Assembly: GCA_037446255.1 (NCBI GenBank)
Contig: JBBIIY010000002.1
Span: 69,630 to 133,629 of the forward strand
DNA: 64,000 nucleotides
Source: Coprothermobacterota bacterium
Lineage (GTDB): Bacteria; Coprothermobacterota; HKB111
Direction of reading: 5' to 3'
Below the pieces are notes generated by a model, which did not search any database, was not told the origin of the DNA, and was given only the letters and a program-made list of their open reading frames with translations. Each line of letters begins with the position of its first letter. The stretch's first letter is position 1. The translations under genes were made by a program, and so were the position numbers. Shown piece by piece: positions 6,041 to 60,021 of this stretch.

Positions 6041-6047
6041 AATTATG

Positions 6048-6192
6048 AACTCTTTGGGGTTAGGTGTAATTCCTTACCGGCGGTAAAAGCCCGCGAGCCA
6101 ATTATTGGTTGAACCGATGTGATTTCGGTGCCGACGGTTAAAGTCCGGATGGGAAAAGGGTCAAGCATATACATTCATGCCTTTTCCCCCTT
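6048..6192 (+). ncRNA. FMN riboswitch (RFN element) in the ribD leader
   Basis: Conserved RFN core: AGGTGtAATTCC...ACCGGCGGTAaAAGCCCGCGAGC...GGTGCCGACGGTtAAAGTCCGGATGGgAaAAGG. Followed by a GGGAAAAGGG...CCTTTTCCCCC helix next to the ribD ATG. Confidence 0.85.
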
Positions 6193-38363: not shown

Positions 38364-38451
38364 TGGTGCCGGGGAAGGGAATCGAACCCCCACGAGGTTT
38401 ACCCTCAGCGGATTTTAAGTCCGCTGCGTCTGCCTGTTCCGCCACCCCGGC
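38364..38451 (-). tRNA. tRNA-Leu (anticodon UAA), CCA encoded
   Basis: Cloverleaf read on the minus strand: GCCGGGGTGGCGGAAC...GGACUUAAAAUCCGC...long variable arm...GGGGGTTCGATTCCCTTCCCCGGCACCA; 88 nt. Confidence 0.85.
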
Positions 38452-38460
38452 ATTGTCTTC

Positions 38461-38537
38461 TGGAGGCGAGGGCCGGATTTGAACCGGCGGATAGCGATTT
38501 TGCAGACCGCCGCCTTAGGCCACTTGGCTACCTCGCC
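38461..38537 (-). tRNA. tRNA-Cys (anticodon GCA), CCA encoded
   Basis: GGCGAGG acceptor; anticodon loop CUGCAAA; T-arm GCCGGTTCAAATCCGGC; 77 nt. Confidence 0.85.
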
Positions 38538-38651
38538 ATAAATACTTTATAATTATATAATAAAGATGCAATATTATTACCAACCTTAAGCAATTGATTC
38601 GCAAAAATAAGGGTAAAATAGATTACCTTACTAAATTTAAAGGGGTAAATA

Positions 38652-39047
38652 ATGAAAAGAGTGGAATTTACCATTAATTCTAAAACAAATATTGAATCAA
38701 TTGATATAACTGCAAAAATTAACAATTTCTTGAGAAATAATGATTTTTCCGCAAATGTGTGTAATATTTTTATACCTCACACCACTGCTGGAGTTTCCAT
38801 CAATGAAAACACTGACCCTGAGGTTATGAATGATTTTTTAAATAAAATCAATCAGTTAATCCCGGTAAATGATCAATACCACCATTTAGAAGGCAATTCA
38901 CCGGCTCATATAAAGACAGTGCTCTGTGGTAACAGCCTGATGGTACCAGTTAAAGAAAACAGATTATTATTAGGAACATGGCAGGGTATATTCCTGCTGG
39001 AATTTGATGGTCCGCGAGAAAGAAAAATCGTTTTAACTTTTTTATAA
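38652..39047 (+). CDS. yjbQ: YjbQ/UPF0047 family protein (secondary thiamine-phosphate synthase-like)
   Basis: 131 aa; conserved IPHTTAG, GNSPAHIK and LGTWQGIFLLEFDGPR blocks. Confidence 0.8.
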   Translation: MKRVEFTINSKTNIESIDITAKINNFLRNNDFSANVCNIFIPHTTAGVSINENTDPEVMNDFLNKINQLIPVNDQYHHLEGNSPAHIKTVLCGNSLMVPVKENRLLLGTWQGIFLLEFDGPRERKIVLTFL

Positions 39048-39162
39048 CTAGTCTGGAAAAATTATACACAACTCACTTAGTCTCTCTGGTTTTTTTGTAT
39101 TAAATTTATTAATTATAAGATATACCTTGTTATCTGACACATTACCTTGATAAGCTAAAGAG

Positions 39163-39238
39163 ATGGAGCGGGAAACGGGATTCGAACCCGCGACCCTCAG
39201 CTTGGGAAGCTGATGCTCTACCGGCTGAGCTACTCCCG
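39163..39238 (-). tRNA. tRNA-Gly (anticodon CCC), CCA encoded
   Basis: GCGGGAGTAGCTCAGCCGGTAGAGC...loop UUCCCAA...GGGTTCGAATCCCGTTTCCCGCTCCA; 76 nt. Confidence 0.85.
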
Positions 39239-39247
39239 CATAAGAGG

Positions 39248-39323
39248 ATGGTGCCGAGAGACGGAATTGAACCGCCGACGCAGGGATTTTCAGTCCCTCG
39301 CTCTACCAACTGAGCTATCTCGG
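39248..39323 (-). tRNA. tRNA-Phe (anticodon GAA), CCA encoded
   Basis: GCCGAGATAGCTCAGTTGGTAGAGC...loop CUGAAAA...GGTTCAATTCCGTCTCTCGGCACCA; 76 nt. Confidence 0.85.
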
Positions 39324-39365
39324 CACAACAGATGTATTATATCATTAATAGGTTTAAAATTTGAT

Positions 39366-48234: not shown

Positions 48235-48386
48235 ACCCAGATTTAAGTACTGGTCTAAATAACCCTGTAAATATGCCTGATAAAATATAGAAAATAATTG
48301 ATTTATGTTATTAAATAGTTCAAAGTAAAAGTGCTGGCCGGCTTTCATTCTGACAATAAAATTAAAGCAGTTATCCTTAAAGATAA

Positions 48387-50297
48387 CTACTTTTGTTTGT
48401 TTCTTAATTTGCGAACATTTCCGTCCCGAAAAGTTATTTTCTGATTATCAAACCATTCAAGCAAAGGGATAGCGTATTTACGAGAAATATTAAACAAATC
48501 TTTAAAATCCCCCGGGCTAATTTCTTCTTTATTCATAAGATAATCAATAAATCCTTTTTTTATGTTTTCAATTACAGAGGTTAAGAACACTAACTCTTCC
48601 GAAACCTTAATAATATCGCCTGTTTCTGCCATAGCTTTAAGCAAACTGTGCAGTTTATCTTTTTTCCATCCTTCCTTATTCATTATTTCAACTAATTCTT
48701 TAATAGTGGGGGGGGTAAATTTATTTTCCCCTAATAATCTCAACAAGGTAGTTCTACCTTCCAGCCATTCACCACTAAACACAGCTTTCAACCCTTTTAA
48801 TCTTACTATTTGACCATTAACCTCCACCATACCTGAATCAACCAGGTACTTAATAAAAATACGAAACTGCTTCACATCTAAACCGATAAGTTTATTCCTT
48901 AGCTCTTCCAGTAAAAAACCTGGAGAATGAGGATTGGCCTGATGATAATCATGCAATTTTTGTTCCACAAATAATTTATTTTCTTCAAACCTTGATTTCA
49001 AGGAGACATATAATGGTTGTTCCGGGGGAAGTAAAACAAGTTTATCGGAATTTACCACTTCTTTAATTATTTCTTCTTCCTCTTTTTGGGAAATAAAGGA
49101 AAGTGCTGGAATATCAATCATAAAACTATCTTCATTATTAAGAATTTTTATTAACCTTGTAGAAGGATCTTCTAAATTTACTGCCGAGCTGAAAAGGGTT
49201 TTTTTTCTTCTTTTAATGGCATAGGGATCAAGTATACATCCTCCTCCAATGGTATTTATCGGAGAGTAACTTCTAATTATAAACCTATCTCCTTCACGGG
49301 CAACCACAGGTTCCTCAAGATAAATCTGTGCATAATTGGTTTCAGTTGGAAGAATTTCTTTTAAACCTGCAAATAAAACTCTTCCTAATACTTCGCTAGA
49401 CCCATGGTAAAACCTTACTCTCTGACCGTGTTTCAACAGGATATTTTTTTTGGTTGGGAGTAATTCAATTTTTAAATCAAGTAAAGATGTAGGTTTATAT
49501 GATTGTGGAGTACAAATTACCTCACCTCTCTTTATCTGACTAACTTTTACATCAGGTAAATTCAAGGCTGCCCTTTCACCAGCAATTGCTTCTTCCACAG
49601 ACTGATAGTGAACTTCTATAGACCTAACTTTTGAATTAAGCCCTTCTGGAAGTATTTCTATGCTCTGACCTTTTTTGACCATCCCATTAAATGTTGTACC
49701 GGTAACTACTGTACCAAAACCTGGCAGAGAAAAAACCCTATCAACAAAAAGGCGAAATGGTCCTGTGGTATCTCTAACCGGTAGAGAAAGAGAAAAATTA
49801 TCAATTAATTCAATCAGATTAGCTATACCCGTATTGTTCACTGTTGAAGTATAGACTATGGGAGCATTTTCTAAAAAACTATTTTTTACTCCCTCCCTGA
49901 TCTCTTTTTCCAGGATTGGCAAGTCAATTTCACTCACCAGGTCAATTTTAGTTACAACTACAGTTCCCTTTTTTAATCCTAATAAATTCAAAATTGCCAG
50001 ATGCTCGTTAGTTTGAGGCATAAATCCTTCATCAGCAGCTACAATCAGTAAAGCTAAATCTATACCATAGCAACCGCTGATCATCTTCCTCACTAACCGT
50101 TCGTGTCCTGGTACATCAATAAATCCAGCAATAACTCCTGAAGGCAGTTTTAAGTAAGCATAACCAAGTTCTATGGATATTCCTCTTTCTCTTTCTTCCT
50201 TCAGACGGTCAGTTTCGATACCTGTTAGGGATTTAACTAACCGGGTTTTACCATGATCAATATGACCTGCAGTACCAACCACCATATAGTTTCGCAC
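48387..50297 (-). CDS. selB: Selenocysteine-specific translation elongation factor SelB
   Basis: 636 aa; GTPase motifs GHIDHGKT, DVPGHE, TKID; long C-terminal winged-helix SECIS-binding extension; last gene of the sel operon. Confidence 0.9.
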   Translation of the reverse strand: MRNYMVVGTAGHIDHGKTRLVKSLTGIETDRLKEERERGISIELGYAYLKLPSGVIAGFIDVPGHERLVRKMISGCYGIDLALLIVAADEGFMPQTNEHLAILNLLGLKKGTVVVTKIDLVSEIDLPILEKEIREGVKNSFLENAPIVYTSTVNNTGIANLIELIDNFSLSLPVRDTTGPFRLFVDRVFSLPGFGTVVTGTTFNGMVKKGQSIEILPEGLNSKVRSIEVHYQSVEEAIAGERAALNLPDVKVSQIKRGEVICTPQSYKPTSLLDLKIELLPTKKNILLKHGQRVRFYHGSSEVLGRVLFAGLKEILPTETNYAQIYLEEPVVAREGDRFIIRSYSPINTIGGGCILDPYAIKRRKKTLFSSAVNLEDPSTRLIKILNNEDSFMIDIPALSFISQKEEEEIIKEVVNSDKLVLLPPEQPLYVSLKSRFEENKLFVEQKLHDYHQANPHSPGFLLEELRNKLIGLDVKQFRIFIKYLVDSGMVEVNGQIVRLKGLKAVFSGEWLEGRTTLLRLLGENKFTPPTIKELVEIMNKEGWKKDKLHSLLKAMAETGDIIKVSEELVFLTSVIENIKKGFIDYLMNKEEISPGDFKDLFNISRKYAIPLLEWFDNQKITFRDGNVRKLRNKQK

Positions 50298-50301
50298 TCT
50301 G

Positions 50302-51663
50302 TTAAACCTCGTTCAGTAAACTTATCAGCTCTTCATCCTGTGTCTCTAAAATCGTTCTCAGGTCAATAGTAAAAGAATCATTACTTATAGTGCCGATCAA
50401 AGGAGGGCTGGTATTTCTAAAATAAATGGACAATCCCTCAGCTGTTTTATCTTCTTTTTTAACTGCAATCAGTATGGTGGGAATAACGCAATCTGGTAAG
50501 GAACCTCCCCCGGTAGTTGAGGTGCCTTCAATAATCTCAAAATTTTTTTTATTATCAACTTTTCTTAAAATATAGCGAGCTCTTTTTCTTAATTCGCTAA
50601 CATCCATTAATAACATTCTGAAAAGAGGTGATTCTAAAAATAATCTATTTTCATCAAAGTATAATTCCAGAACTGCCTCCAGCGCCACTACAGTCATTTT
50701 GTCTATTCTCAAGGCTCGTGATAGTGGATGTTGTTTTAATATTTTAATTAATTGATTTTTACCAATTATTATTCCGCATTGAGGACCACCTAATAATTTA
50801 TCGCCTGAAAAAAGAACCAGATCTACTCCTGCTTTAAGGCTGCCCTCGACTGTTGGTTCAGTTTTTAAATATTCTATAGGGTAATTTTTTAATAACCCGC
50901 TTCCCAGGTCTTCAATAGTTATAAGATTCCTTTCTCTCCCTAAACTTGTCAATTTTTTTAAATCAACCTGCTGGGTAAATCCCTTGATAGAAAAATTACT
51001 GGGGTGCACTTTAAGCAGAGAAGAAGTGTTTTCATTAATGGCTTTGGAATAATCGCTAATCCGGGTGATATTGGTTGTTCCAACTTCTATTAATTTAGCA
51101 CCACTTTGCAGCATAATGTCCGGTACGCGAAATGAACCCCCTATTTCAACTAACTCTCCACGAGAAACCAGGACCTCTTTTTCTCGGCAAAGAGCAGAAA
51201 GAACCAACAAAACAGCACCAGCATTATTATTTACCACGAAAGCTGACTCTCCCCCTGTCAATTTAGTTAACATATATTCAATATTTTCCAGTCTGCTTCC
51301 TCGTTCTCCTGAACTTAGATTATATTCCAAGTTAGAATAAGAGCTCATCACATCCAAAACATTTATGCAGGATATCATCGGTAGTGGGCTTCTTCCCAGG
51401 TTTGTATGAAGTAACACTCCGGTACCATTTAAAACTTTCCTGATTCTTCTTTTTGAAATGAATTGTTTTACTTCATAAATGATGGTTTGTATGGAAATAT
51501 CCAATTCAGGATTGCTTTTAGACTGAAGTCTTAATTTTACTAATTTATCATTTATAGCTTCTTTTACCAGATTCCTTGGGTACTGTTTGAAAAGTTCTCT
51601 AACCTCAGGATTAGATAAAATAGTTTCCATTGAAGGCAATTTCCTCAACTGATTTTCTTTCAT
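50302..51663 (-). CDS. selA: L-seryl-tRNA(Sec) selenium transferase (selenocysteine synthase)
   Basis: 453 aa; SelA family pattern including the PLP-lysine region (FSGDKLLGGPQCGII). Confidence 0.9.
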   Translation of the reverse strand: MKENQLRKLPSMETILSNPEVRELFKQYPRNLVKEAINDKLVKLRLQSKSNPELDISIQTIIYEVKQFISKRRIRKVLNGTGVLLHTNLGRSPLPMISCINVLDVMSSYSNLEYNLSSGERGSRLENIEYMLTKLTGGESAFVVNNNAGAVLLVLSALCREKEVLVSRGELVEIGGSFRVPDIMLQSGAKLIEVGTTNITRISDYSKAINENTSSLLKVHPSNFSIKGFTQQVDLKKLTSLGRERNLITIEDLGSGLLKNYPIEYLKTEPTVEGSLKAGVDLVLFSGDKLLGGPQCGIIIGKNQLIKILKQHPLSRALRIDKMTVVALEAVLELYFDENRLFLESPLFRMLLMDVSELRKRARYILRKVDNKKNFEIIEGTSTTGGGSLPDCVIPTILIAVKKEDKTAEGLSIYFRNTSPPLIGTISNDSFTIDLRTILETQDEELISLLNEV

Positions 51664-52812
51664 TTAATCCCTCCTTAAAATCTCATTTAGAGATTTAGAA
51701 AAATATTGTATTTCATCATGAGTATTAAAAATACTAAAACTACATCTTATAGTGCCAATGGGAAAGGTACCCAGGCTTTTGTGGGCAAGAGGAGAACAAT
51801 GCAGACCTGCCCTGACCATTATCCCATAATCTCTGTCAAGAATATTGGTAATTGTGGATATATCTTTGTTTTTTATATTAAAAGAAAGAATCCCTGTGGT
51901 TTTCTTTGAGTCCAAGGGTCCGAATAAATTAATACTTTTTTCGCTTACTAATTTCTCTATTAAAAAATCACGAAGTTTCCTTTCGTGTAAAACAACTGAA
52001 GATATTCCCATTTCTAATAGAAAATCTACTCCTGCTCCCAAACCTATTATTCCTACGGAATTCAAGGTACCTGACTCAAATTTATCCGGTAAAAAATCAG
52101 GTTGATATTCTTCTTCTGATTGACTGCCAGTTCCTCCTTCAATGAGTGGTTCTAATATACCAGCAAGCCTGGGTGATAGAACCACTCCTCCAGTCCCTTG
52201 AGGTCCATATAACCCTTTATGACCGGTAAAAGCAAAAGCATCTATATGCCAATTATCTGCTTCTATGGTTTCAAAACCAGCTAATTGCGCTCCATCTACT
52301 AAAAAAAGGATATCATTAGAATGAGCTATTTTTCCAATCTTGGCTAAGGGTTGAATAGTTCCAGATACATTAGAAGCTCCCAAAACCGTAATCAGTTTTG
52401 CTCCCATTTGCGCCTGATTTTTCAGGGTTTCCAAGTCAATTAACCCCTCGGAGTTGGAAGGTATAAAAACAAGTTTAACGCCTTTCCTTTCAAGATTTCT
52501 AAGCGGTCTTATTACAGCATTATGTTCCATTGAAGACAGTATTACCCTGTCCCCGGGTTTTAATAATCCTTTTAAAACCATGTTTATGGCATAGGTTGAA
52601 TTATAGGTGAAAATAACCCTCAGAGGGTCATTTACACCAAATAGTTGGGCAACTTTGCATCTAACTCCATAAACTTTCTTGCTTGTCTCTATAGCCCATT
52701 GATAGTGACCCCTTCCTGTGCTGCCACCAATACTTTTCAAATGGTAGTCAATAGTCTCAATAACCTTTTCTGGCTTAGGATAGGTGGTAGCGGCATTATC
52801 CAGGTAAATCAA
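51664..52812 (-). CDS. Class V aminotransferase (cysteine desulfurase / selenocysteine lyase-like)
   Basis: 382 aa; N-terminus MIYLDNAATTYP; PLP-lysine region (AFTGHKGLYGPQGTGG); embedded between yedF and selA. Confidence 0.75.
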   Translation of the reverse strand: MIYLDNAATTYPKPEKVIETIDYHLKSIGGSTGRGHYQWAIETSKKVYGVRCKVAQLFGVNDPLRVIFTYNSTYAINMVLKGLLKPGDRVILSSMEHNAVIRPLRNLERKGVKLVFIPSNSEGLIDLETLKNQAQMGAKLITVLGASNVSGTIQPLAKIGKIAHSNDILFLVDGAQLAGFETIEADNWHIDAFAFTGHKGLYGPQGTGGVVLSPRLAGILEPLIEGGTGSQSEEEYQPDFLPDKFESGTLNSVGIIGLGAGVDFLLEMGISSVVLHERKLRDFLIEKLVSEKSINLFGPLDSKKTTGILSFNIKNKDISTITNILDRDYGIMVRAGLHCSPLAHKSLGTFPIGTIRCSFSIFNTHDEIQYFSKSLNEILRRD

Positions 52813-52814
52813 AC

Positions 52815-53033
52815 CTAATCACTAACCTTTTGTAAACTATCAACAGGTATCTCATTGGTTTCCAGGAGTTTAACTGTCTTCTCCAGTATTGTTTCAGCTA
52901 TGAGAATAGAAAGGTTGCAGGAAGGGTCAAGTTCCCGGGGAGTAGGAATTATTTGATGGGGAATTTTCTCCTTCTCTAATATATGGTTCACTTTTAATAC
53001 CAAGTTGGTAGTAGGGAGTTGAATTAAAATCAT
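52815..53033 (-). CDS. DUF3343-like small protein (putative Se/S carrier partner of YedF)
   Basis: 72 aa; size and position immediately downstream of yedF match the known YedF-DUF3343 pairing. Confidence 0.5.
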   Translation of the reverse strand: MILIQLPTTNLVLKVNHILEKEKIPHQIIPTPRELDPSCNLSILIAETILEKTVKLLETNEIPVDSLQKVSD

Positions 53034-53590
53034 AAGGAGGTTACATTCCCAAGTAAAAGGTATTTCAGTATTTCAAACATATTGGAAATATTTCCTGCTT
53101 TAAGTTCGTTTTCCAGGTTAAAATACTTCAAGCAAGTCCCGCATACCAGGATATTTACACCCATTTCTGCCAATTTTTGAAGAGGTTGACAGCAGTTTTC
53201 ATCACAGGCTAAATACACTCCTGTATTCATCAGTACTAAAGTTTCAGGGAGAATCGGAGATTGAATTAGAGTATTCAGGAAGGACTTCATTAATAATCCA
53301 CCCAGCTCGTCATCCCCTTTACCCAGGCATCGCGATGAAAGAAACAATGTTTTACCATGATTGTCTTTATCTATTTTTGGGGTTTTCATTTCATTTTCCA
53401 GTCGTATTTTATAAATTCCCTCTTCCATTGTCCAATCGGCAGTAATATCTCTACTGCTGGCAAACCTGAGCAGGTTATTTAAAGTAGTTTCGTTGTCAAC
53501 TATTACCTCTAAACAATTGATTCCTTCTTCCAGAGCTTTTTTAACTCTAATAACCGGTTGAGGACAGGGTAAACCTCTTAAATCCATCAA
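53030..53590 (-). CDS. yedF: Selenium metabolism protein YedF (TusA-like N-domain + DsrE-like C-domain)
   Basis: 186 aa; TusA-type CPxP motif (DLRGLPCPQPVIRVKKAL); C-terminal DsrE-like region. Confidence 0.8.
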   Translation of the reverse strand: MMDLRGLPCPQPVIRVKKALEEGINCLEVIVDNETTLNNLLRFASSRDITADWTMEEGIYKIRLENEMKTPKIDKDNHGKTLFLSSRCLGKGDDELGGLLMKSFLNTLIQSPILPETLVLMNTGVYLACDENCCQPLQKLAEMGVNILVCGTCLKYFNLENELKAGNISNMFEILKYLLLGNVTSL

Positions 53591-53611
53591 TAACCTAATA
53601 TCCCCCTCAAA

Positions 53612-54652
53612 TCAGATAATTTCTATTTTTTCTTCTTCATCTTTAACAAATGAGCCTATGATAGAGGCAGTTGAAAATCCTGCTTCCTTTAAAATCAACA
53701 AAAGAAGTTCAGCATTATTTTCCTCAACCACCACCAGCAATCCCCCTGAAGTTTGTGGGTCATAAAGTAGAATCGGGTCAAAAATCATATTATCATGAGT
53801 AATATTATTAATTACCTTTGGCGATGCCCATTTTTCATTTCTATAAGCTCCTCCGGGAACAAACCCGCTTAGAGCTAATTCATTAGCTTTTTTAAAAATA
53901 GGTATTTCACGAGCAATCATTTTAATACCTAACTTTGACTTATTTATCATGCTGAGAGCGTGAACTATCAAACCAAAGCCAGTAACATCGGTACAAGCCT
54001 TAATTTTAATCTTATGATTTTTCAATAATACCGGTAAATTGTTTAGTTTCTTCATGGAATAAGCTACACTATTTATTATATCCAGGGGGGCTTCGCCAGC
54101 TTTAAGAGCGGTAGAAACAATACCAGTGCCAATAGGTTTAGTAAGTATCAATACATCACCTTCATCAGCCCCGCCAACTCTCCACAGGTTATCTTTAGTA
54201 CCAAATCCTGTGACTACCATACCATATTTAATCTCTTCATCTTCTATGGTATGCCCTCCTCCAATTAATACTCCAGCTTCACCTGCTTTATCCTGCCCTC
54301 CAGCAAGTATCTGGCTCAAAACTTCTTTGGGTAATATAGAGCAAGGAAAAGCAATTATATTAAGTGCTAATTCAGGTAAACAACCCATGGTATAAATATC
54401 ACTTATCGCATTAGCTGCTACTACCTGCCCAAAATCATAAGGGTTATCAAGAATAGGGGTAATCATATCCACGGTTTGCACCAAAACCGAGTTTCCCTCG
54501 GTGGAATACACGGTGGCGTTTTCCCACCCTTCCCAATGAGAAAGCAGTTTGGAGTTATAAGGTAATTTTAAGCTGCTTAAGACCTCACCGAGGTCTCCTG
54601 GTCCAACTTTAGCAGCTCAACCAGCAGCTTTAGCAAAATCGGTTAACCTCAT
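53612..54652 (-). CDS. selD: Selenide, water dikinase SelD, itself a selenoprotein (in-frame TGA at codon 12, complement of 54617..54619)
   Basis: Minus-strand translation from the ATG at 54652 gives MRLTDFAKAAG-U-AAKVGPGDLGEVL, joining in frame to the ORF-track ORF (MYSTEGNSVLVQTVD...), i.e. the canonical SelD N-terminus with Sec at the Cys/Sec position. SD AGGAGG 7 nt upstream. Confidence 0.85.
54573..54616 (-). ncRNA. SECIS-like stem-loop immediately 3' of the selD UGA
   Basis: mRNA GCUGCUaAAG...GACCUC-GGU-GAGGUC...CUUaAGCAGC: outer stem about 9 bp with one mismatch; inner 6-bp stem with a small apical loop about 20 nt from the UGA. Confidence 0.6.
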
Positions 54653-54702
54653 TTTATCCTCCTGTAGACATAATTAACCTAATATTCAAAAACTTTATCG
54701 GC

Positions 54703-54731
54703 TTGACTTATGAGCATAAATATCTTATCAT
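54703..54731 (+). promoter_or_regulatory. Sigma70-type promoter of selC (-35 TTGACT 54703-54708, 17-nt spacer, -10 TATCAT 54726-54731)
   Basis: Consensus-like hexamers with ideal spacing, ending 7 nt upstream of the tRNA-Sec 5' end. Confidence 0.6.
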
Positions 54732-54738
54732 AAAAAAT

Positions 54739-54834
54739 GGGAGTAGATGGGGCGCTGGTGTCCCTCCTGGACTTCAAATCCAATGGCAGGTGTGTTCCAC
54801 CTGTGGTGGGTTCGATTCCCACATACTCCCGCCA
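54739..54834 (+). tRNA. selC: tRNA-Sec (selC), anticodon UCA, CCA encoded
   Basis: 96 nt; 8-position acceptor (GGGAGUAG); 6-bp D-stem with 4-nt loop (GGGGCG-CUGG-UGUCCC); anticodon loop CUUCAAA; long variable arm (CAGGUG-UGUUC-CACCUG); 5-bp T-stem with loop UUCGAUU; divergent from selD. Confidence 0.8.
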
Positions 54835-54915
54835 TATATTTTTGGAATATTTATTACTGAATCAGTATTCAATAAGTTAAATTATTGCTAATATCGAAAC
54901 TCTAAAAAGACTCTG

Positions 54916-56526
54916 TTATTCAACGGATATAAAATATTGATAATGAGGTTGCCCGCCATAATACCATTCAACTTCGGCTTTGAATCTTTTAATAATTTTC
55001 TCTCTCAAAATCCAATCCTCTTCAATGCCTTCACCAGCATATAAAGTAACTATGGACCCTTCCTGGCAGGGAGATTTCTTAAGAGTACCCAGGACTACTT
55101 CGTTTAAATCTTCATTTGAATATAATATTTCATCGTTGGAAGTAATGGAAATAAAATCACCGAGTTTATAGTCAGTTCCCCCCAGATTACCGTTTCTTTG
55201 AGCTATCGTTACTTCAGCTACCCAGGTATCAGCAATACTTTCATTCATTCTTTCTAAGTTCTCTTCTGGTTCTAAATCGGGATTAAATCTTAACAGAGCA
55301 GAAATTCCTTCTATCATATGGGTAGTATTTACCTGATAAACTTTAGACCGTGAAGCAATCTTAATTGCTTCTTCAGCAGCCATTTTTATATTCATATTAT
55401 TTATTATTAAAAAAATATTTTCTGAGTTTGCTTTCTTGATACCGGAAACAATTTCTTCCACGCTGGGATTCATAGTTTGGCCACCAGTAATCAATCCATC
55501 AGCTCCCAGGTTTTTATAAACCTCCTCCATTCCCTTTCCTAAAACAACCGCTATTATGGAATATTTTTTAGGAGTTAAATTTATGTCAGATTGGATCTCC
55601 GCTTTTTTGTATAGATACTCCTGGTGCTGCACTTTCATATTATCTATTTTTATATCCTGAATTTCCCCGGTACTCAAGGCATAAGCAAGAACCCTGTCTG
55701 GGTGGTTAGAATGTATATGTAATTTAATAATGGAAGCATCTCCAACAACTAACAAACTTCCACCAATCTCTGCTAAGATATTTTCCAGTTCTTCGGTAGT
55801 TTTATTAGGGTTTTTAATTAACAATTCAGTACAATAAGCAAACTCAAGGTCTTCTTCTACAACTGCTGGTAAAGGTTCTTTAAATTGTGAAGGCTCCAAA
55901 AGTACTATCTCAGGTACCGATTCTCCGGTTAAAGTTTTAACCATACCTTTGAAAATGTGGATTAACCCTAAACCTCCTGCATCTACGACCCCTGCTTCTT
56001 TCAACACTGGCAGCATATCAGGAGTTTTTTGAAGAGCGATATCTGCTTCCCTGATACCACCCAACAGTATTTTTATTATGTCATCGGAAACTACTCCTTG
56101 CGCTCCTTCTGCAAGAGAGCGAATTATGGTTAGCATAGTTCCTTCAACAGGTCTCATCACTGCTTTATAGGCACTCTCAGAACCCTGTTTTAGTGCTCTT
56201 TTTAGAATTTCTCCGTCAATCTGACTTTCATCATTAAAAACACTACATATACCTAAAATAATCTGGGATAGAATAACCCCGGAATTACCTCGAGCCCCCA
56301 TCAAAGAACCTCTTCTAAAAGCCAGAGACAACTCTTTTATAGTTTTAGGATTATTTTTGGAGATTTCATCAAGAGCTGATTGCATAGTCATAACCATATT
56401 AATTCCTGTATCACCGTCTGGAACAGGAAAAACATTTAAAGCATTAACTTCATCTTTATGAACAGCCAATTCATCAGAAGCACCTTTAATCATGTTGAGC
56501 AGGTCAGAAAAAACTAAGGCTCTCAT
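54916..56526 (-). CDS. yloV: DAK2 domain fusion protein YloV
   Basis: 536 aa; N-terminal Dak2 motif (PDGDTGINM). Confidence 0.8.
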   Translation of the reverse strand: MRALVFSDLLNMIKGASDELAVHKDEVNALNVFPVPDGDTGINMVMTMQSALDEISKNNPKTIKELSLAFRRGSLMGARGNSGVILSQIILGICSVFNDESQIDGEILKRALKQGSESAYKAVMRPVEGTMLTIIRSLAEGAQGVVSDDIIKILLGGIREADIALQKTPDMLPVLKEAGVVDAGGLGLIHIFKGMVKTLTGESVPEIVLLEPSQFKEPLPAVVEEDLEFAYCTELLIKNPNKTTEELENILAEIGGSLLVVGDASIIKLHIHSNHPDRVLAYALSTGEIQDIKIDNMKVQHQEYLYKKAEIQSDINLTPKKYSIIAVVLGKGMEEVYKNLGADGLITGGQTMNPSVEEIVSGIKKANSENIFLIINNMNIKMAAEEAIKIASRSKVYQVNTTHMIEGISALLRFNPDLEPEENLERMNESIADTWVAEVTIAQRNGNLGGTDYKLGDFISITSNDEILYSNEDLNEVVLGTLKKSPCQEGSIVTLYAGEGIEEDWILREKIIKRFKAEVEWYYGGQPHYQYFISVE

Positions 56527-56843
56527 ACCTTAACCTTGTATAAATAAAGTTTGATTTTAATATTATTTTGCTCGATACCAATCATTTTAGAGAGGACAAA
56601 CCTTAAAGTTTGCATGGTATTTTTGGCAACCTGCTGAAAAGGCAATTCCGGTTGAACCAAAAGAGAAAGTTGAAGTGTTAAAATGTCTCTCCTGGTTTTT
56701 ATTTTAATATCAGGAGGTTTTCCCTGAACTTTTTCCAATATGGTAGATTTATGTATCCCCACTACCCCATAACAATCATAAATAGTTTCTAAAACTATTT
56801 GTTCAATTGCTTTTTCACTGATTATAGTTCTTCCAATAATCAT
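56523..56843 (-). CDS. Asp23/Gls24 family protein (YloU-like alkaline shock protein)
   Basis: 106 aa; Asp23 family pattern; conserved pairing with yloV downstream. Confidence 0.7.
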   Translation of the reverse strand: MIIGRTIISEKAIEQIVLETIYDCYGVVGIHKSTILEKVQGKPPDIKIKTRRDILTLQLSLLVQPELPFQQVAKNTMQTLRFVLSKMIGIEQNNIKIKLYLYKVKV

Positions 56844-56847
56844 CTTT

Positions 56848-58656
56848 TCACTCCACCGTTACGGATTTTGCCAGATTTCGGGGCTTATCAATCGGTGCTC
56901 CACATTCACGAGCGGTGTAGTAGGCTAACAACTGAAGCACTAACCCATTCAATATAGGGCTGATCAACATATCTGAATCAGGCAGTTTCACTACCCTGTA
57001 AGATGTATCTTTTAAATCCAGGGTGGTAAACAGGTATATTTTACCCCCGCGAGACCTTACTTCCTCAAAATTTGACAACATTTTTGGAGCAATAGATTTA
57101 TTGCTTAAAAAAGCAATAACCGGGGTGTTATTTTCTATTAACGCCAGGGGTCCATGTTTTAACTCTCCTCCAGCATAAGCTTCGGCATGAATATAAGATA
57201 TTTCTTTCATCTTCAAGGCTCCCTCAAGAGCAGTATAGTAATCCTGCAATCTACCAAGGAAGAATAAATGTTTTGCTTCTTTCAATTCTCTGGCTATTTC
57301 TAAAAATACTTCGGATTTATCAAGGATCTGCTGAGCCTTGAAAGGCAATTCTTTTAATTCCTTTATATAATGCCTTTCTTTTTCATAATTTAGCTTATTT
57401 CTTTTTTTAGACCAGCTAAGAGCTAATAACAATAAAGTCAGCATCTGACTGGTATATGCTTTAGTTGAGGCTACGCTTATTTCTGGTCCAGCACGAGTAT
57501 AAATAGTCCTGTCGGATTCACGAGAAACACTGCTTCCTATAACATTAGTTATACCTATTACCGGATAGCTAAGGTCTTTTAACCGGGTTAACACCCCCAG
57601 AGTATCTGCAGTTTCACCTGACTGACTGACGATTATTCCCACAGCAGGTTTTACCCAGGGGACATCACGATACCTGAACTCAGAAGCCGCTTCTGTCTCA
57701 GCTTCCAGGTCACAAAGAGTCTCTAAGTAATATTTGCCTACTAAAGTAGCATGATAAGCAGTCCCACAAGCTCCAAAATACACTTTTCTAAGGTTAGGGA
57801 TTAAGTCGCCAAAATCAGCTTCATCTAATAAAAGCCGGTCTTCAGATATTCTTTCTCTCAGGGTATCTTTCAAAACAGTAGGTTGCTCATAAATTTCTTT
57901 TAACATAAAATGTGGATAACCACTCTTTTCTGCTAATCGGGCATCCCAGTTAGTTTCAATTACTTCAACTTTTCTTTCCTTTCCCTCAGTATTTATAACC
58001 TGAAAACCATTTTTTCCCAGAATGCCGATGTCTCCCTCTTCCAGAATTACTATTTTTTTGGTATAGGGTAAAAGGGCAGGTATATCTGAAGCAGCGTAGC
58101 ACTCACCCTCTCCAACACCTATTATCAAGGGGCTTTGTTTTCTTACGAGAACAATTTTCTCCTCTTGAACGGAAATTACTGCCAGAGCATATGCTCCCTG
58201 CAAATCTTTGATTCCCTTGATTACTGCTTCTTCAAGATTCCCCTTGTAATATTTTTCTAAAATGTGCACCACAATCTCGGTGTCTGTTTCAGAAATAAAC
58301 TTATGCCCCTCATTTAATAATTGCTCCCTGAGTTCTTTATAGTTTTCAATGATTCCATTATGAACCAGAGTCAATTTGTTGTCACAACTGGCATGAGGAT
58401 GAGCATTGATATCTGAAGGAACTCCATGAGTAGCCCAACGGGTATGTCCGATGCCATACACTGCCAGGTGTTTGCTCTCTTTCAGTAAATCTGATAGGCT
58501 GTCTACACTTCCCTTAGTTTTTATGATGTTCAATTCTCCTTCTTCAACCAGAGCAATACCAGCCGAGTCATACCCTCTATATTCCAACCGCTGTAATCCC
58601 TGAATTAATATTGGCATTACTGGTTTATTACCTATATAAGCGATAATTCCACACAC
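56848..58656 (-). CDS. glmS: Glutamine--fructose-6-phosphate aminotransferase
   Basis: 602 aa; N-terminal MCGIIAYIG (Ntn Cys); two SIS domains; C-terminal KSVTVE. Confidence 0.9.
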   Translation of the reverse strand: MCGIIAYIGNKPVMPILIQGLQRLEYRGYDSAGIALVEEGELNIIKTKGSVDSLSDLLKESKHLAVYGIGHTRWATHGVPSDINAHPHASCDNKLTLVHNGIIENYKELREQLLNEGHKFISETDTEIVVHILEKYYKGNLEEAVIKGIKDLQGAYALAVISVQEEKIVLVRKQSPLIIGVGEGECYAASDIPALLPYTKKIVILEEGDIGILGKNGFQVINTEGKERKVEVIETNWDARLAEKSGYPHFMLKEIYEQPTVLKDTLRERISEDRLLLDEADFGDLIPNLRKVYFGACGTAYHATLVGKYYLETLCDLEAETEAASEFRYRDVPWVKPAVGIIVSQSGETADTLGVLTRLKDLSYPVIGITNVIGSSVSRESDRTIYTRAGPEISVASTKAYTSQMLTLLLLALSWSKKRNKLNYEKERHYIKELKELPFKAQQILDKSEVFLEIARELKEAKHLFFLGRLQDYYTALEGALKMKEISYIHAEAYAGGELKHGPLALIENNTPVIAFLSNKSIAPKMLSNFEEVRSRGGKIYLFTTLDLKDTSYRVVKLPDSDMLISPILNGLVLQLLAYYTARECGAPIDKPRNLAKSVTVE

Positions 58657-60021
58657 TTATTCCTCCTCTATCTCTAAAATTTTACTCATCATCCTATTAA
58701 TAATTGGTTTTATAACATCATGTTCCTTTGCTTCAACCATAACTCTTATCATAGGTTCAGTTCCTGAAGCCCTGATAATAATTCTACCTCTAACTCCAAG
58801 TTCTTTATTTATTTCTTCTACATACTCCTGTAATTTAGGATTTCTAAGAATTTCATGTTTCTTTGTGGTATGGTGATTTATTTCTCCCTGAGGAAATTCA
58901 TTTAGTATAGTTTTAAGTTTTGATAAGGGAGTACCACTTGAAGAAAGTGCATCCAATAATTCAAGCGAAGTAATAATTCCATCACCAGTTGTTGACTTAT
59001 CCATGATAACCAGGTGACCGGACCTTTCTCCTCCGAGAATGAGCTGTTTATTCCTTAAAGTTTGTACTATATTTCTATCCCCAACATCAACCCGAAGCAA
59101 ATTCACACCTAAACGATTAAATATCTCTTCCAATCCCTGGTTGGAAAGTATAGTGCCTACCACTGTAGAACCTGGTAACCTGCACGAATTTATCATATTA
59201 GAGGCAATAATAGCCAATAAGTGATCTCCATTAAGTACATCGCCTTTTTCATCAACCACGATTACCCTGTCTCCATCTCCGTCAAAAGCAAAACCAACAT
59301 CAGCGTTATTTTCAATAATGACTTTTTGTATTTTCTGAGGATTAGTGGACCCGCAATTAACATTAATTAAGTTACCATTAAATTCTCCATGAACAACCGT
59401 TACCTTTGCTCCTAATCTCCTGAATACTTCTGGAGCTACCTTAGAAGTTGCACCATAGGCAGTATCTATAACTAAAGATAAATTTTCCAGGTTAAATGGA
59501 TATTTTTCTAAGAGATATTCTATATAATAGTTCTGGGCTTCACTAAAATCGCGTAATTTTCCTACTGAAACTCCATACGAACGAGCTATTAAATCAGTCA
59601 TTCCCAGATTAAGTTCAATAAGGTCTTCATCTTCATCGCTGATTTTAAATCCACTTGAATCAAAAAATTTAAAACCATTATCCTCAACTGGGTTATGAGA
59701 AGCTGAACAAACTACCCCAAAATCAAAACCATATTTTACTGTAAGCATAGAAACAGCTGGCGTAGGAATTATATTAGCATCATAAACATCTATTCCCAAA
59801 GCCATAAGACCTGAGGAGAGTGCTTGAGATAACATTTCTCCCGAAATGCGACTGTCTTTTCCCAGGATAACCTTCCTTTTATCCTTCACTAACACATGTC
59901 CGGCAGATAATCCCAGTTTCAATGAAAATTCGGGAGTTAATTCTTTACCTGCAATCCCTCTTATACCATCAGTCCCAAATAAACGATAATTCTGCATTAA
60001 TATTTTCTCCTGACTGTTCAA
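58657..60021 (-). CDS. glmM: Phosphoglucosamine mutase
   Basis: 454 aa; FGTDGIRG; active-site SASHNP; GDGDR metal-binding. Confidence 0.9.
   Translation of the reverse strand: MNSQEKILMQNYRLFGTDGIRGIAGKELTPEFSLKLGLSAGHVLVKDKRKVILGKDSRISGEMLSQALSSGLMALGIDVYDANIIPTPAVSMLTVKYGFDFGVVCSASHNPVEDNGFKFFDSSGFKISDEDEDLIELNLGMTDLIARSYGVSVGKLRDFSEAQNYYIEYLLEKYPFNLENLSLVIDTAYGATSKVAPEVFRRLGAKVTVVHGEFNGNLINVNCGSTNPQKIQKVIIENNADVGFAFDGDGDRVIVVDEKGDVLNGDHLLAIIASNMINSCRLPGSTVVGTILSNQGLEEIFNRLGVNLLRVDVGDRNIVQTLRNKQLILGGERSGHLVIMDKSTTGDGIITSLELLDALSSSGTPLSKLKTILNEFPQGEINHHTTKKHEILRNPKLQEYVEEINKELGVRGRIIIRASGTEPMIRVMVEAKEHDVIKPIINRMMSKILEIEEE

Follow-up and report, generated by a model that had tools for sequence, protein, structure and literature searches.

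The locus analysed here raises the question whether a selenophosphate synthetase gene depends on selenium for its own translation, in other words whether a TGA near the 5' end of selD (encoding selenide, water dikinase) is read as selenocysteine (Sec) or ends the protein. The window, i.e. the whole analysed stretch of 64,000 nucleotides, carries on its minus strand a full-length selD frame of 346 codons plus stop (53612..54652), which starts at ATG 54652..54650 and ends at TGA 53614..53612. Its sole interruption is the TGA at 54619..54617, which constitutes codon 12 and follows ten sense codons past the ATG. The initial annotation regarded selD as truncated in the list of open reading frames and proposed the N-terminus MRLTDFAKAAG-U in frame with the listed gene. 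Direct reading of the minus strand confirmed this N-terminus (MRLTDFAKAAG-*-AAKVGPGDLGEVL...), and the full frame indeed begins at ATG 54652, not at 54511. The latter position had been described as an internal Met, which turned out to be incorrect; the codon is GTG and encodes Val48 of SelD. A Shine-Dalgarno sequence, AGGAGG (54658..54663, minus strand), is located 5 nt before ATG 54652 with the spacer ATAAA and is unchanged in all four close relatives. Between the preceding stop codon and the TGA, 18 codons are open, seven of them before the ATG, and no in-frame start codon other than ATG 54652 was found in this segment. Taken together with the comparisons presented below, the gene very probably encodes a Sec-containing selenophosphate synthetase in which UGA codon 12 is read as selenocysteine.

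When the TGA is read through, the product matches the SelD family profile TIGR00476 with 309.6 bits (cutoff 125) over residues 2-313 and profile positions 1-310 of 311; a full-length match was obtained only in this way. Both Pfam domains, AIRS (PF00586, 75.6 bits) and AIRS_C (PF02769, 77.9 bits), were detected, and the SelD chains 2yye and 3u0o in the PDB were matched with E-values of 3.6e-55 and 6.3e-46, respectively. The alignment of the read-through product begins at residue 1 with E. coli SelD (3u0o) and at residue 4 with Aquifex aeolicus SelD (2yye). It places the TGA (54617..54619, motif G-U-A-A-K) on E. coli Cys17 with Lys20 at +3, in agreement with the earlier proposal that this codon occupies the catalytic Cys/Sec position. 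The Gly-rich loop of SelD hence reads G11-U12-A-A-K15 in the window, and the motif G-U-A-A-K-V-G-P-G-D-L is identical to that of the A. aeolicus enzyme (PDB 2yye/2zod). Overall, the product shares about 40-47% identity with anything outside its own lineage.

At the codon aligned with UGA12, TGA was found in 134 of the 160 related loci that were compared, and the remaining 26 carry TGC or TGT. At the codon level, the evidence that this Sec/Cys pairing exceeds chance is overwhelming. With TGA counted as equivalent to Cys, none of the 159 sequences deviates at the positions of E. coli C17 and K20, and an N-terminal peptide of the type [MVIL]RLT...G is kept in frame upstream of the Sec/Cys codon across the related selD loci. 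Reading frame, homology and the Sec/Cys pairing across homologues thus agree with a SelD bearing an in-frame UGA at codon 12. Among the close relatives, ATG, Shine-Dalgarno sequence and TGA are identical in four independently assembled loci (L001, L002, L081 and L082), the latter two being the only further close relatives with the N-terminus that a metagenome scan yielded. One selD locus each was found in two Lithacetigenota genomes by a scan that depends on the peptide pattern.

These comparisons also bear on the idea that the TGA is a true stop and that a truncated SelD is made from the internal codons GTG 54511 or ATG 54466, which we regard as very improbable. It can draw on the fact that public databases store just such truncated products, with entries of 299 and 284 aa for the sequence of this gene and of 290 aa for proteins named 'Selenide, water dikinase' from Ca. 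Lithacetigena; an exact look-up of full-length SelD with X at codon 12 in the public protein collection returned no entry. However, truncation at UGA is built into gene callers, and the truncated forms would be devoid of the Gly-rich loop with its catalytic Sec/Cys and Lys. A selD-deficient E. coli is not complemented by SEPHS2 constructs shortened at the N-terminus (PMC7595633). In addition, the protein segment encoded by the 47 codons before GTG 54511 is conserved across the 160 loci, and a perfect Shine-Dalgarno sequence and an ATG stand in front of it; the segment 5' of the TGA is SelD-like and kept in frame in the 159 other loci, as the initial annotation had assumed. A start at the internal codon, which would have spoken against that annotation, is not kept either, since GTG 54511 is GTA in both closest relatives, L001 and L002.

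The surroundings of selD encode the Sec machinery. Divergently upstream lies selC (54739..54834, plus strand), a tRNA-Sec with anticodon UCA, which was found with Rfam RF01852 (68.3 bits; gathering score 47) and called tRNA-SeC(tca) by ARAGORN; its 5' end adjoins selD in L001 and L002 as well. Downstream on the minus strand, selD is followed by yedF (53030..53590), coding for a sulfurtransferase-like selenium metabolism protein (TIGR03527, 180.1 bits, cutoff 110; Pfam TusA) with ATG 53587 as its likely start, and by a gene for a putative Se/S carrier of 72 aa (52815..53033; PF11823, 53.2 bits), whose first 4 nt overlap the stop of yedF. Next come a cysteine desulfurase family gene (51664..52812; TIGR01977, 438.1 bits, cutoff 377), which is SclA-like yet stays under the SclA cutoff (NF040779, 339.6 bits versus 525), selA for L-seryl-tRNA(Sec) selenium transferase (50302..51663; TIGR00474, 545.1 bits, cutoff 267.9) and selB for the Sec-specific elongation factor (48387..50297; TIGR00475, 369.1 bits, cutoff 242.25). 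The match of selB spans profile positions 1-580 of 581, and the gene is full-length with its C-terminal part included. From selD to selB, the gaps amount to 21, -4, 0, 0 and 4 nt, and the unit is presumably transcribed as an operon; where selB ends, a 13-bp hairpin resembling a terminator (48364..48393, minus strand), found by consensus scan only, likely marks the end of this unit. The genes selC, selA and selB are encoded beside selD, all within 6.5 kb.

This neighbourhood weighs against a second alternative to Sec insertion, according to which UGA12 is decoded as Trp or Gly by a reassigned code, or as Cys or another residue via a near-cognate or mis-charged tRNA. UGA is reassigned in some uncultured lineages, and in other systems the Sec machinery inserts Cys under selenium shortage; such Cys insertion could even help to start a feedback loop of the type discussed below. 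Nevertheless, a dedicated tRNA-Sec, selA and selB adjoin selD, and homologues show only TGA or Cys codons at the position in question. A reassignment of UGA was rejected, as TGA stops 17 of the 45 long ORFs of the window, selD included. We therefore give non-Sec decoding hardly any chance. Among all same-frame ORF pairs across a TGA in the window, no credible TGA-split gene besides selD was found. Finally, a selD pseudogene or an assembly or sequencing error at the TGA, conceivable for a window from a metagenome-type assembly, is practically negligible given that five assemblies of the lineage, made independently of each other, share this TGA and are 100% identical around it, and that 134 of the 160 homologous loci have it too, while the remaining frame is intact and its divergence from L001 is mostly synonymous (57 synonymous versus 27 non-synonymous differences over the whole gene).

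We thus infer that Sec is actually inserted at UGA12. Translation of selD would begin at ATG 54652, and the stem-loop at 54597..54579 would recruit SelB·GTP·Sec-tRNA(Sec) at UGA 54619..54617, yielding an enzyme of 346 residues that supplies SelA with selenophosphate. In absence of selenium, translation would stop after 11 residues. In this scheme selD would act as first gene of a tight unit with the tRNA-Sec transcribed divergently. The arrangement would be self-reinforcing, because SelD cannot be made without Sec-tRNA(Sec), whose formation depends on selenophosphate. The earlier reading of a positive feedback, in which SelD synthesis requires its own product, is logically sound, yet it is not new: Guimaraes et al. 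(1996, PNAS 93:15086) posed it as a question in the title of their paper, and SelD feedback in bacteria has been discussed (PMC1794560).

How would the ribosome distinguish this UGA from a stop? Downstream of the codon, we found a SECIS-like upper stem-loop, GAGACCUC-GGU-GAGGUCUU (54579..54597, minus strand; 19 nt), in which 54597..54590 pair with 54586..54579 to form an 8-bp stem with a 3-nt loop. Folded alone, the hairpin reaches -9.9 kcal/mol; within a 26-mer the value is -11.0 kcal/mol (z -3.55). The pair probability is 0.93-1.0, and it is the sole hairpin located 8-50 nt 3' of the UGA. The bSECIS model (PMC13188914) demands a loop of 3-9 nt on a stem of 4-16 bp, a G within the first two loop positions that is usually followed by G or U, a distance of 16-37 nt from UGA to the apical loop and an energy of at most -7.5 kcal/mol. 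The hairpin conforms to this published model in all four respects; the GGU loop begins 27 nt past UGA12, which also bears out the SECIS-compatible distance claimed earlier, and the folding check proposed for it likewise ended in a conforming structure. The initial annotation described a compound hairpin with an inner stem of 6 bp and a 9-bp outer stem. The inner stem comprises 8 bp rather than 6; the AAG/CUU part of the outer stem requires C54581, U54580 and U54579, which are already used by the inner stem, so that both pairings cannot coexist.

Support for the hairpin itself as a SECIS element is moderate. Synonymous recoding of the same peptide produced a model-conforming hairpin in 5.4% of cases and an equally stable one in 1.4%. 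This rarity speaks against a mere consequence of the encoded peptide, and so does the lack of synonymous differences from L001 in codons 1-47, given 57 such differences over the gene as a whole (Poisson P about 4e-4). Within the upper hairpin, the relatives differ only in the loop or by changes that wobble pairing tolerates; L001 shares the GGU apical loop of the window, and L002, L081 and L082 have GGA instead. In total, the five sequences show three substitutions at stem positions, two of which are wobble-compatible and one of which breaks a terminal pair. RNAalifold revealed no covariation among these five sequences, which are 96% identical (0 of 41 predicted pairs doubly changed). Across the wider set, hairpins of the model type occur in 62 of 134 Sec loci compared to 1 of 26 Cys loci (Fisher 1.5e-5), a difference that is suggestive only, since the loci are phylogenetically clustered and most Cys loci belong to Bacillales; the enrichment is inflated by shared ancestry, with 45 of the 62 being a single hairpin type. 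Folding energy over the 72 nt from the Sec/Cys codon did not distinguish 102 Sec loci from 26 Cys loci (median z -0.15 versus -0.48, P = 0.70) when each gene was resampled synonymously with its own codon usage, and the window's own z against such gene-specific resampling was only -1.4. As Sec and Cys loci do not differ in total minimum free energy (MFE), we set this quantity aside as SECIS evidence and used the model hairpin instead. An Rfam scan of 50000..60000 (E <= 10) gave no SECIS match over the hairpin region; this silence was not counted against the hairpin, because bacterial SECIS elements share too little sequence. SelB would be expected to bind the stem-loop at 54597..54579.

Around the upper hairpin, a lower SECIS helix is possible between UGAGCUGCU (54619..54611) and AGCAGCUUA (54577..54569), which would include the UGA and enclose the hairpin (54569..54619, minus strand). 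It comprises 6 bp (GCUGCU/AGCAGC), or 9 bp once the UGA is counted in. In E. coli fdhF, the UGA is drawn into the lower SECIS helix, and the same would be possible for selD. Lower helix and upper hairpin together form the MFE structure of a 55-nt segment (-20.9 kcal/mol, z -3.91), and the terminal pair of the lower helix is broken in L002 and L082. Within the full 5' end, an upstream AGCUGCU copy (54629..54623) out-competes this helix; the pair probabilities of the helix drawn in the initial annotation are about 0, compared to 0.59-0.98 for the alternative. The resulting extended 5' fold (54557..54652, minus strand) is predicted to enclose both the UGA and the SECIS-like hairpin by pairing AUGAGGU (54652..54646) with ACCUUAU (54563..54557), GAUUUUG (54640..54634) with UUAAAAU (54570..54564) and AGCUGCU (54629..54623) with AGCAGCU (54577..54571). 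The MFE of 54665..54545 is -42.6 kcal/mol, and the energy of the extended fold was reached by 5 of 1000 synonymous recodings, or by 8 of 1000 if only the flanking codons were recoded. No covariation was found in this fold among the five close sequences.

The extended fold leads to a regulatory idea that we consider improbable. The first ~105 nt of the selD mRNA might fold the AUG region (54652..54646) onto codons 30-32, thereby enclosing UGA and hairpin, and binding of SelB·Sec-tRNA or read-through might gate initiation according to the selenium status, and the whole Sec-synthesis operon by polarity after termination at codon 12. Such an operon-wide effect of UGA12 decoding is conceivable because selD heads a presumed operon with selA and selB. 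Compatible with this idea are the stable fold, the tight gene packing and the fact, mentioned above, that codons 1-47 are synonymously frozen relative to L001.

From a broader perspective, a Sec-type selD is an ordinary and long-known bacterial arrangement, and only one bacterial selenoprotein family is more widespread than SelD. Published surveys place it among the top two in this respect (PMC1794560; PMC13188914), and its Sec type is known in Clostridia and Deltaproteobacteria (PMC1794560). As in other Sec-containing bacterial SelD, the hairpin lies 3' of the UGA inside the coding sequence and the enzyme would depend on its own product selenophosphate. The distance from UGA to hairpin loop varies, being 27 nt in the window, 33 nt in the largest group of relatives and 16-20 nt in others. 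Cys-type SelD (E. coli 3u0o; Bacillales, Paenibacillus) has the same fold and domains as the SelD studied here and likewise the catalytic Lys and the residues at E. coli D68, N87, D91 and D227. It differs in carrying TGC or TGT and the motif G-C-G-C-K in place of TGA and G-U-A-A-K, and it does not need a SECIS element. Compared to bacterial SECIS elements in general (Zhang and Gladyshev model, via PMC13188914; fdhF prototype), the candidate is likewise situated in the ORF 3' of the UGA, and its small apical loop likewise begins with two G residues. In sequence it does not resemble other SECIS elements, a bulged U was not identified in the hairpin, and either of two GCUGCU copies could form the lower helix. 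The eukaryotic and archaeal SEPHS2/SPS2 systems follow the same logic, since selenium is activated there, too, by an enzyme that is a selenoprotein; their SECIS resides in the 3' UTR and the factors are EFSec/SBP2 and PSTK/SecS, whereas here SelA, SelB and an in-ORF SECIS-like hairpin are present.

The gene belongs to Ca. Lithacetigenota, a lineage of serpentinite springs for which selenocysteine utilisation has been described as a core function and whose proposed energy metabolism rests on a selenoprotein glycine reductase (PMC9751293). The main value of our analysis is a correction of annotation: the stored fragments of 284-299 aa are devoid of the catalytic loop, and a reconstruction of selenium metabolism from these entries would show a defective SelD in the lineage. 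With the corrected gene, the whole Sec pathway appears intact and clustered (selC, selD, yedF, Se/S-carrier gene, desulfurase gene, selA, selB) and would be selenium-dependent at its own first step. What is new is local, as one more lineage is added to a known selenoprotein family and no concept is changed.

A minor observation concerns the active site. Besides the invariant catalytic pair, E. coli SelD has D51, D68, N87, D91 and D227, conserved residues with acidic or amide side chains that we assign to the ATP/metal site. At the position of D51, Asn (Asn45) occurs only in the window and its four close relatives, in contrast to Asp in the other 154 of 159 sequences. Nothing that maps onto this residue was found in the literature on the Asp51 position, PMC7595633 included. 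We assume that the Asn-bearing SelD is catalytically competent; the residues aligned with D68, N87, D91 and D227 are conserved in its sequence.

The selD gene of the window extends further upstream than the mechanical ORF call (53612..54511) suggests. Read directly from the sequence, its full frame runs on the minus strand from an ATG (54652..54650) to a TGA stop (53614..53612) and is preceded by the Shine-Dalgarno motif AGGAGG (54663..54658) and the spacer ATAAA. The ATG is followed by ten sense codons and an in-frame TGA as codon 12 (54619..54617), after which the frame stays open to the stop, yielding the translation MRLTDFAKAAG*AAKVGPGDLGEVL.... The minus-strand transcription in the initial annotation matches the sequence from 54680 to 53600, and the called start at 54511 is indeed internal, but it is not the methionine codon it was taken for: the codon is GTG (Val48 of the long frame), which is replaced by GTA in the close relatives Ca. 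Lithacetigena glycinireducens (L001, 92% amino-acid identity) and Ca. Psychracetigena formicireducens (L002, 88%). No second start codon occurs in this frame from the preceding stop up to the TGA.

Read-through of the TGA yields a product that matches the SelD equivalog profile TIGR00476 with 309.6 bits (cutoff 125) over positions 1-310 of 311 and contains both AIRS domains. It aligned from residue 4 with SelD of Aquifex aeolicus (2yye; E 3.6e-55), in which the stretch G-x-AAKVGPGDL is identical, and from residue 1 with SelD of E. coli (3u0o; E 6.3e-46). E. coli Cys17 falls opposite the TGA and Lys20 opposite the window's lysine three residues further on, which places the TGA at the catalytic Cys/Sec position, as had been proposed. 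Public copies of the window protein are shortened to 284 aa (NCBI, on a 200,339-bp contig; 53612..54466) or 299 aa (Logan; 53612..54511), and the entries MBT9164236.1 and MBT9174510.1 from Ca. Lithacetigena glycinireducens/'candidate division WS2' comprise 290 aa. Since all these entries are truncated, the Sec form of SelD is unrecorded in this lineage. N-terminally truncated selenophosphate synthetases were found not to complement a selD mutant (PMC7595633) and by analogy the annotated short forms would thus be inactive.

For comparison, selD loci (n = 160; 159 of them span the N-terminus) were collected from species-representative genomes and from metagenome contigs, each scanned once. With the window included, 134 sequences carry TGA at the position of codon 12 and 26 carry TGC or TGT, and the upstream peptide [MVIL]RLTxxxxxxG is kept in frame in all sequences covering this region. 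Selenoprotein genes are classically recognised by such an alternation between Sec and Cys. The possibility that the upstream segment is unconserved or not SelD-like was thereby checked and did not apply. The motif differs by type, with G-U-A-[AC]-K in Sec-type and G-C-G-C-K in Cys-type genes. In the four close relatives (L001, L002 and the metagenome contigs L081 and L082), the region from the Shine-Dalgarno motif to codon 16, TGA included, is identical to that of the window. A reassigned genetic code, in which TGA would be an ordinary sense codon, is excluded because TGA serves as stop of 17 of the 45 long ORFs in the window, selD among them, and no other TGA-interrupted gene is visible there. 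The in-frame TGA in selD is confirmed and, apart from small corrections, the analysis supports the interpretation of the gene as a Sec-encoding selD with a SECIS-like hairpin. A SelD with Sec is a textbook case; the window gene adds an under-studied candidate phylum to this very well-known kind.

The gene context is that of a complete selenium cluster (48387..54834), in which selC lies divergent from a tightly packed selD-to-selB unit. The tRNA-Sec gene selC (54739..54834, plus strand; anticodon UCA; Rfam 68.3 bits, gathering score 47) is located 86 nt upstream of selD on the opposite strand. Five genes 3' of selD share its strand: yedF (53030..53590), a gene for a PF11823 Se/S-carrier protein of 72 aa (52815..53033), a cysteine desulfurase gene that resembles SclA, the selenocysteine lyase, without reaching the cutoff of the SclA model (51664..52812), selA (50302..51663) and selB (48387..50297). 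The intergenic gaps from selD through selB amount to 21, -4, 0, 0 and 4 nt; after selB, the unit ends at a 13-bp terminator-like hairpin (48364..48393). As selC, selA and selB adjoin selD, all four dedicated Sec components are found within 6.5 kb. A promoter-like TTGACT-17-TATCAT (54703..54731, plus strand; 10 of 12 matches) was seen 8 nt before the tRNA-Sec gene, a count not above regional shuffle expectation. In Ca. Lithacetigenota, selenocysteine utilisation belongs to the core functions and is required by glycine reductase (PMC9751293).

RNA folding revealed only one simple hairpin 8-50 nt 3' of the UGA (54597..54579, minus strand), with an 8-bp stem (GAGACCUC/GAGGUCUU) and a GGU loop. Folded as a 26-mer it reaches -11.0 kcal/mol (z -3.55); when the whole 5' end is folded, its bases pair with probabilities of 0.93-1.0. 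It fits the consensus bacterial SECIS model (PMC13188914) on all four counts: the apical loop has 3 nt (model 3-9 nt), the upper stem 8 bp (4-16 bp), the UGA-to-loop spacing is 27 nt (16-37 nt) and the free energy -9.9 kcal/mol (<= -7.5 kcal/mol). The compound hairpin described in the initial annotation thus lies at a SECIS-compatible distance, but its 9-bp outer stem does not hold, as three bases of its AAG/CUU part already belong to the inner stem. GCUGCU/AGCAGC forms the lower helix, which extends to 9 bp when the UGA is included; an upstream AGCUGCU copy (54629..54623) competes for its partner and wins in the full-5'-context ensemble. Among Sec-type loci, the distance of the model-conforming hairpin from the UGA varies by clade (33 nt in 45 loci, 20 nt in 8, 27 nt in 5 from the window's lineage, 17 nt in 3 and 16 nt in 1), indicating that the SECIS position is not conserved within one protein family.

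The evidence for this hairpin as SECIS is moderate. When the same peptide was recoded synonymously 20,000 times with codon frequencies taken from nine neighbouring genes, any model-conforming hairpin appeared in 5.4% of trials and one of at least native stability in 1.4%. The window and L001 show 57 synonymous differences over the whole gene, but codons 1-47, for which 7.7 would be expected, have none (Poisson P about 4e-4). Substitutions among close relatives in the hairpin and lower helix comprise one loop change, two wobble-compatible exchanges (A-U to G·U, G-C to G·U) and, at the end of the lower helix, the loss of one terminal pair. Three results weaken the case: no compensatory change was found in this region across the window and its four close relatives, total folding energy did not separate Sec-type from Cys-type loci, and the contrast in strict model hairpins (62 of 134 Sec loci versus 1 of 26 Cys loci) is inflated by shared ancestry. 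The case for Sec is therefore carried mainly by SelD homology, the Sec/Cys comparison and gene context, with the hairpin as the only, model-conforming, candidate SECIS.

By analogy with the established bacterial system (PMC13188914), SelB·GTP·Sec-tRNA(Sec) would bind the hairpin at its apical part, and at UGA12 the ribosome would take Sec-tRNA rather than release factor 2. Full-length SelD would then bear Sec in its flexible N-terminal loop, and its selenophosphate would allow SelA to convert Ser-tRNA(Sec) to the Sec-tRNA(Sec) needed for SelD synthesis. As SelD would need Sec-tRNA(Sec) made from its own product, a self-reinforcing loop may result, possibly primed by inherited protein, by the occasional insertion of Cys or by another selD copy in the genome; under selenium shortage, translation would end after 11 residues. 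Guimaraes et al. 1996 reportedly made the question of autoregulation the title of their paper. A larger 5' fold from -13 to codon 36 (54545..54665, minus strand; -42.6 kcal/mol) is predicted as a three-way structure in which the AUG region is paired with codons 30-32 and the UGA and the hairpin lie enclosed. Its stability was reached by 5 of 1000 full synonymous recodings and by 8 of 1000 with only flanking codons recoded, i.e. it exceeds 99.2-99.5% of recodings, and no covariation behind it was detected in the window and four close relatives. A role of UGA12 decoding in gating the entire operon by selenium, through this extended fold and the place of selD as the first gene, appears highly improbable to us.

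Six catalytic-site columns are invariant in the 159 sequences (E. coli positions C17/U, K20, D68, N87, D91 and D227). At codon 45 (54518..54520, minus strand), Asn stands opposite E. coli Asp51, which we take to be a metal/ATP ligand in crystal structures, only in the window and its four close relatives (5 of 159); the other 154 carry Asp. In the preceding Asp50 column, the window's lineage has Glu. Elsewhere in the window, an FMN riboswitch (RF00050, 111.4 bits; 6046..6164, plus strand) lies directly 5' of a 377-codon ORF with an N-terminus RibD-like in appearance, and four tRNA genes (Leu-UAA, Cys-GCA, Gly-CCC and Phe-GAA) form a cluster at 38364..39324 on the minus strand.
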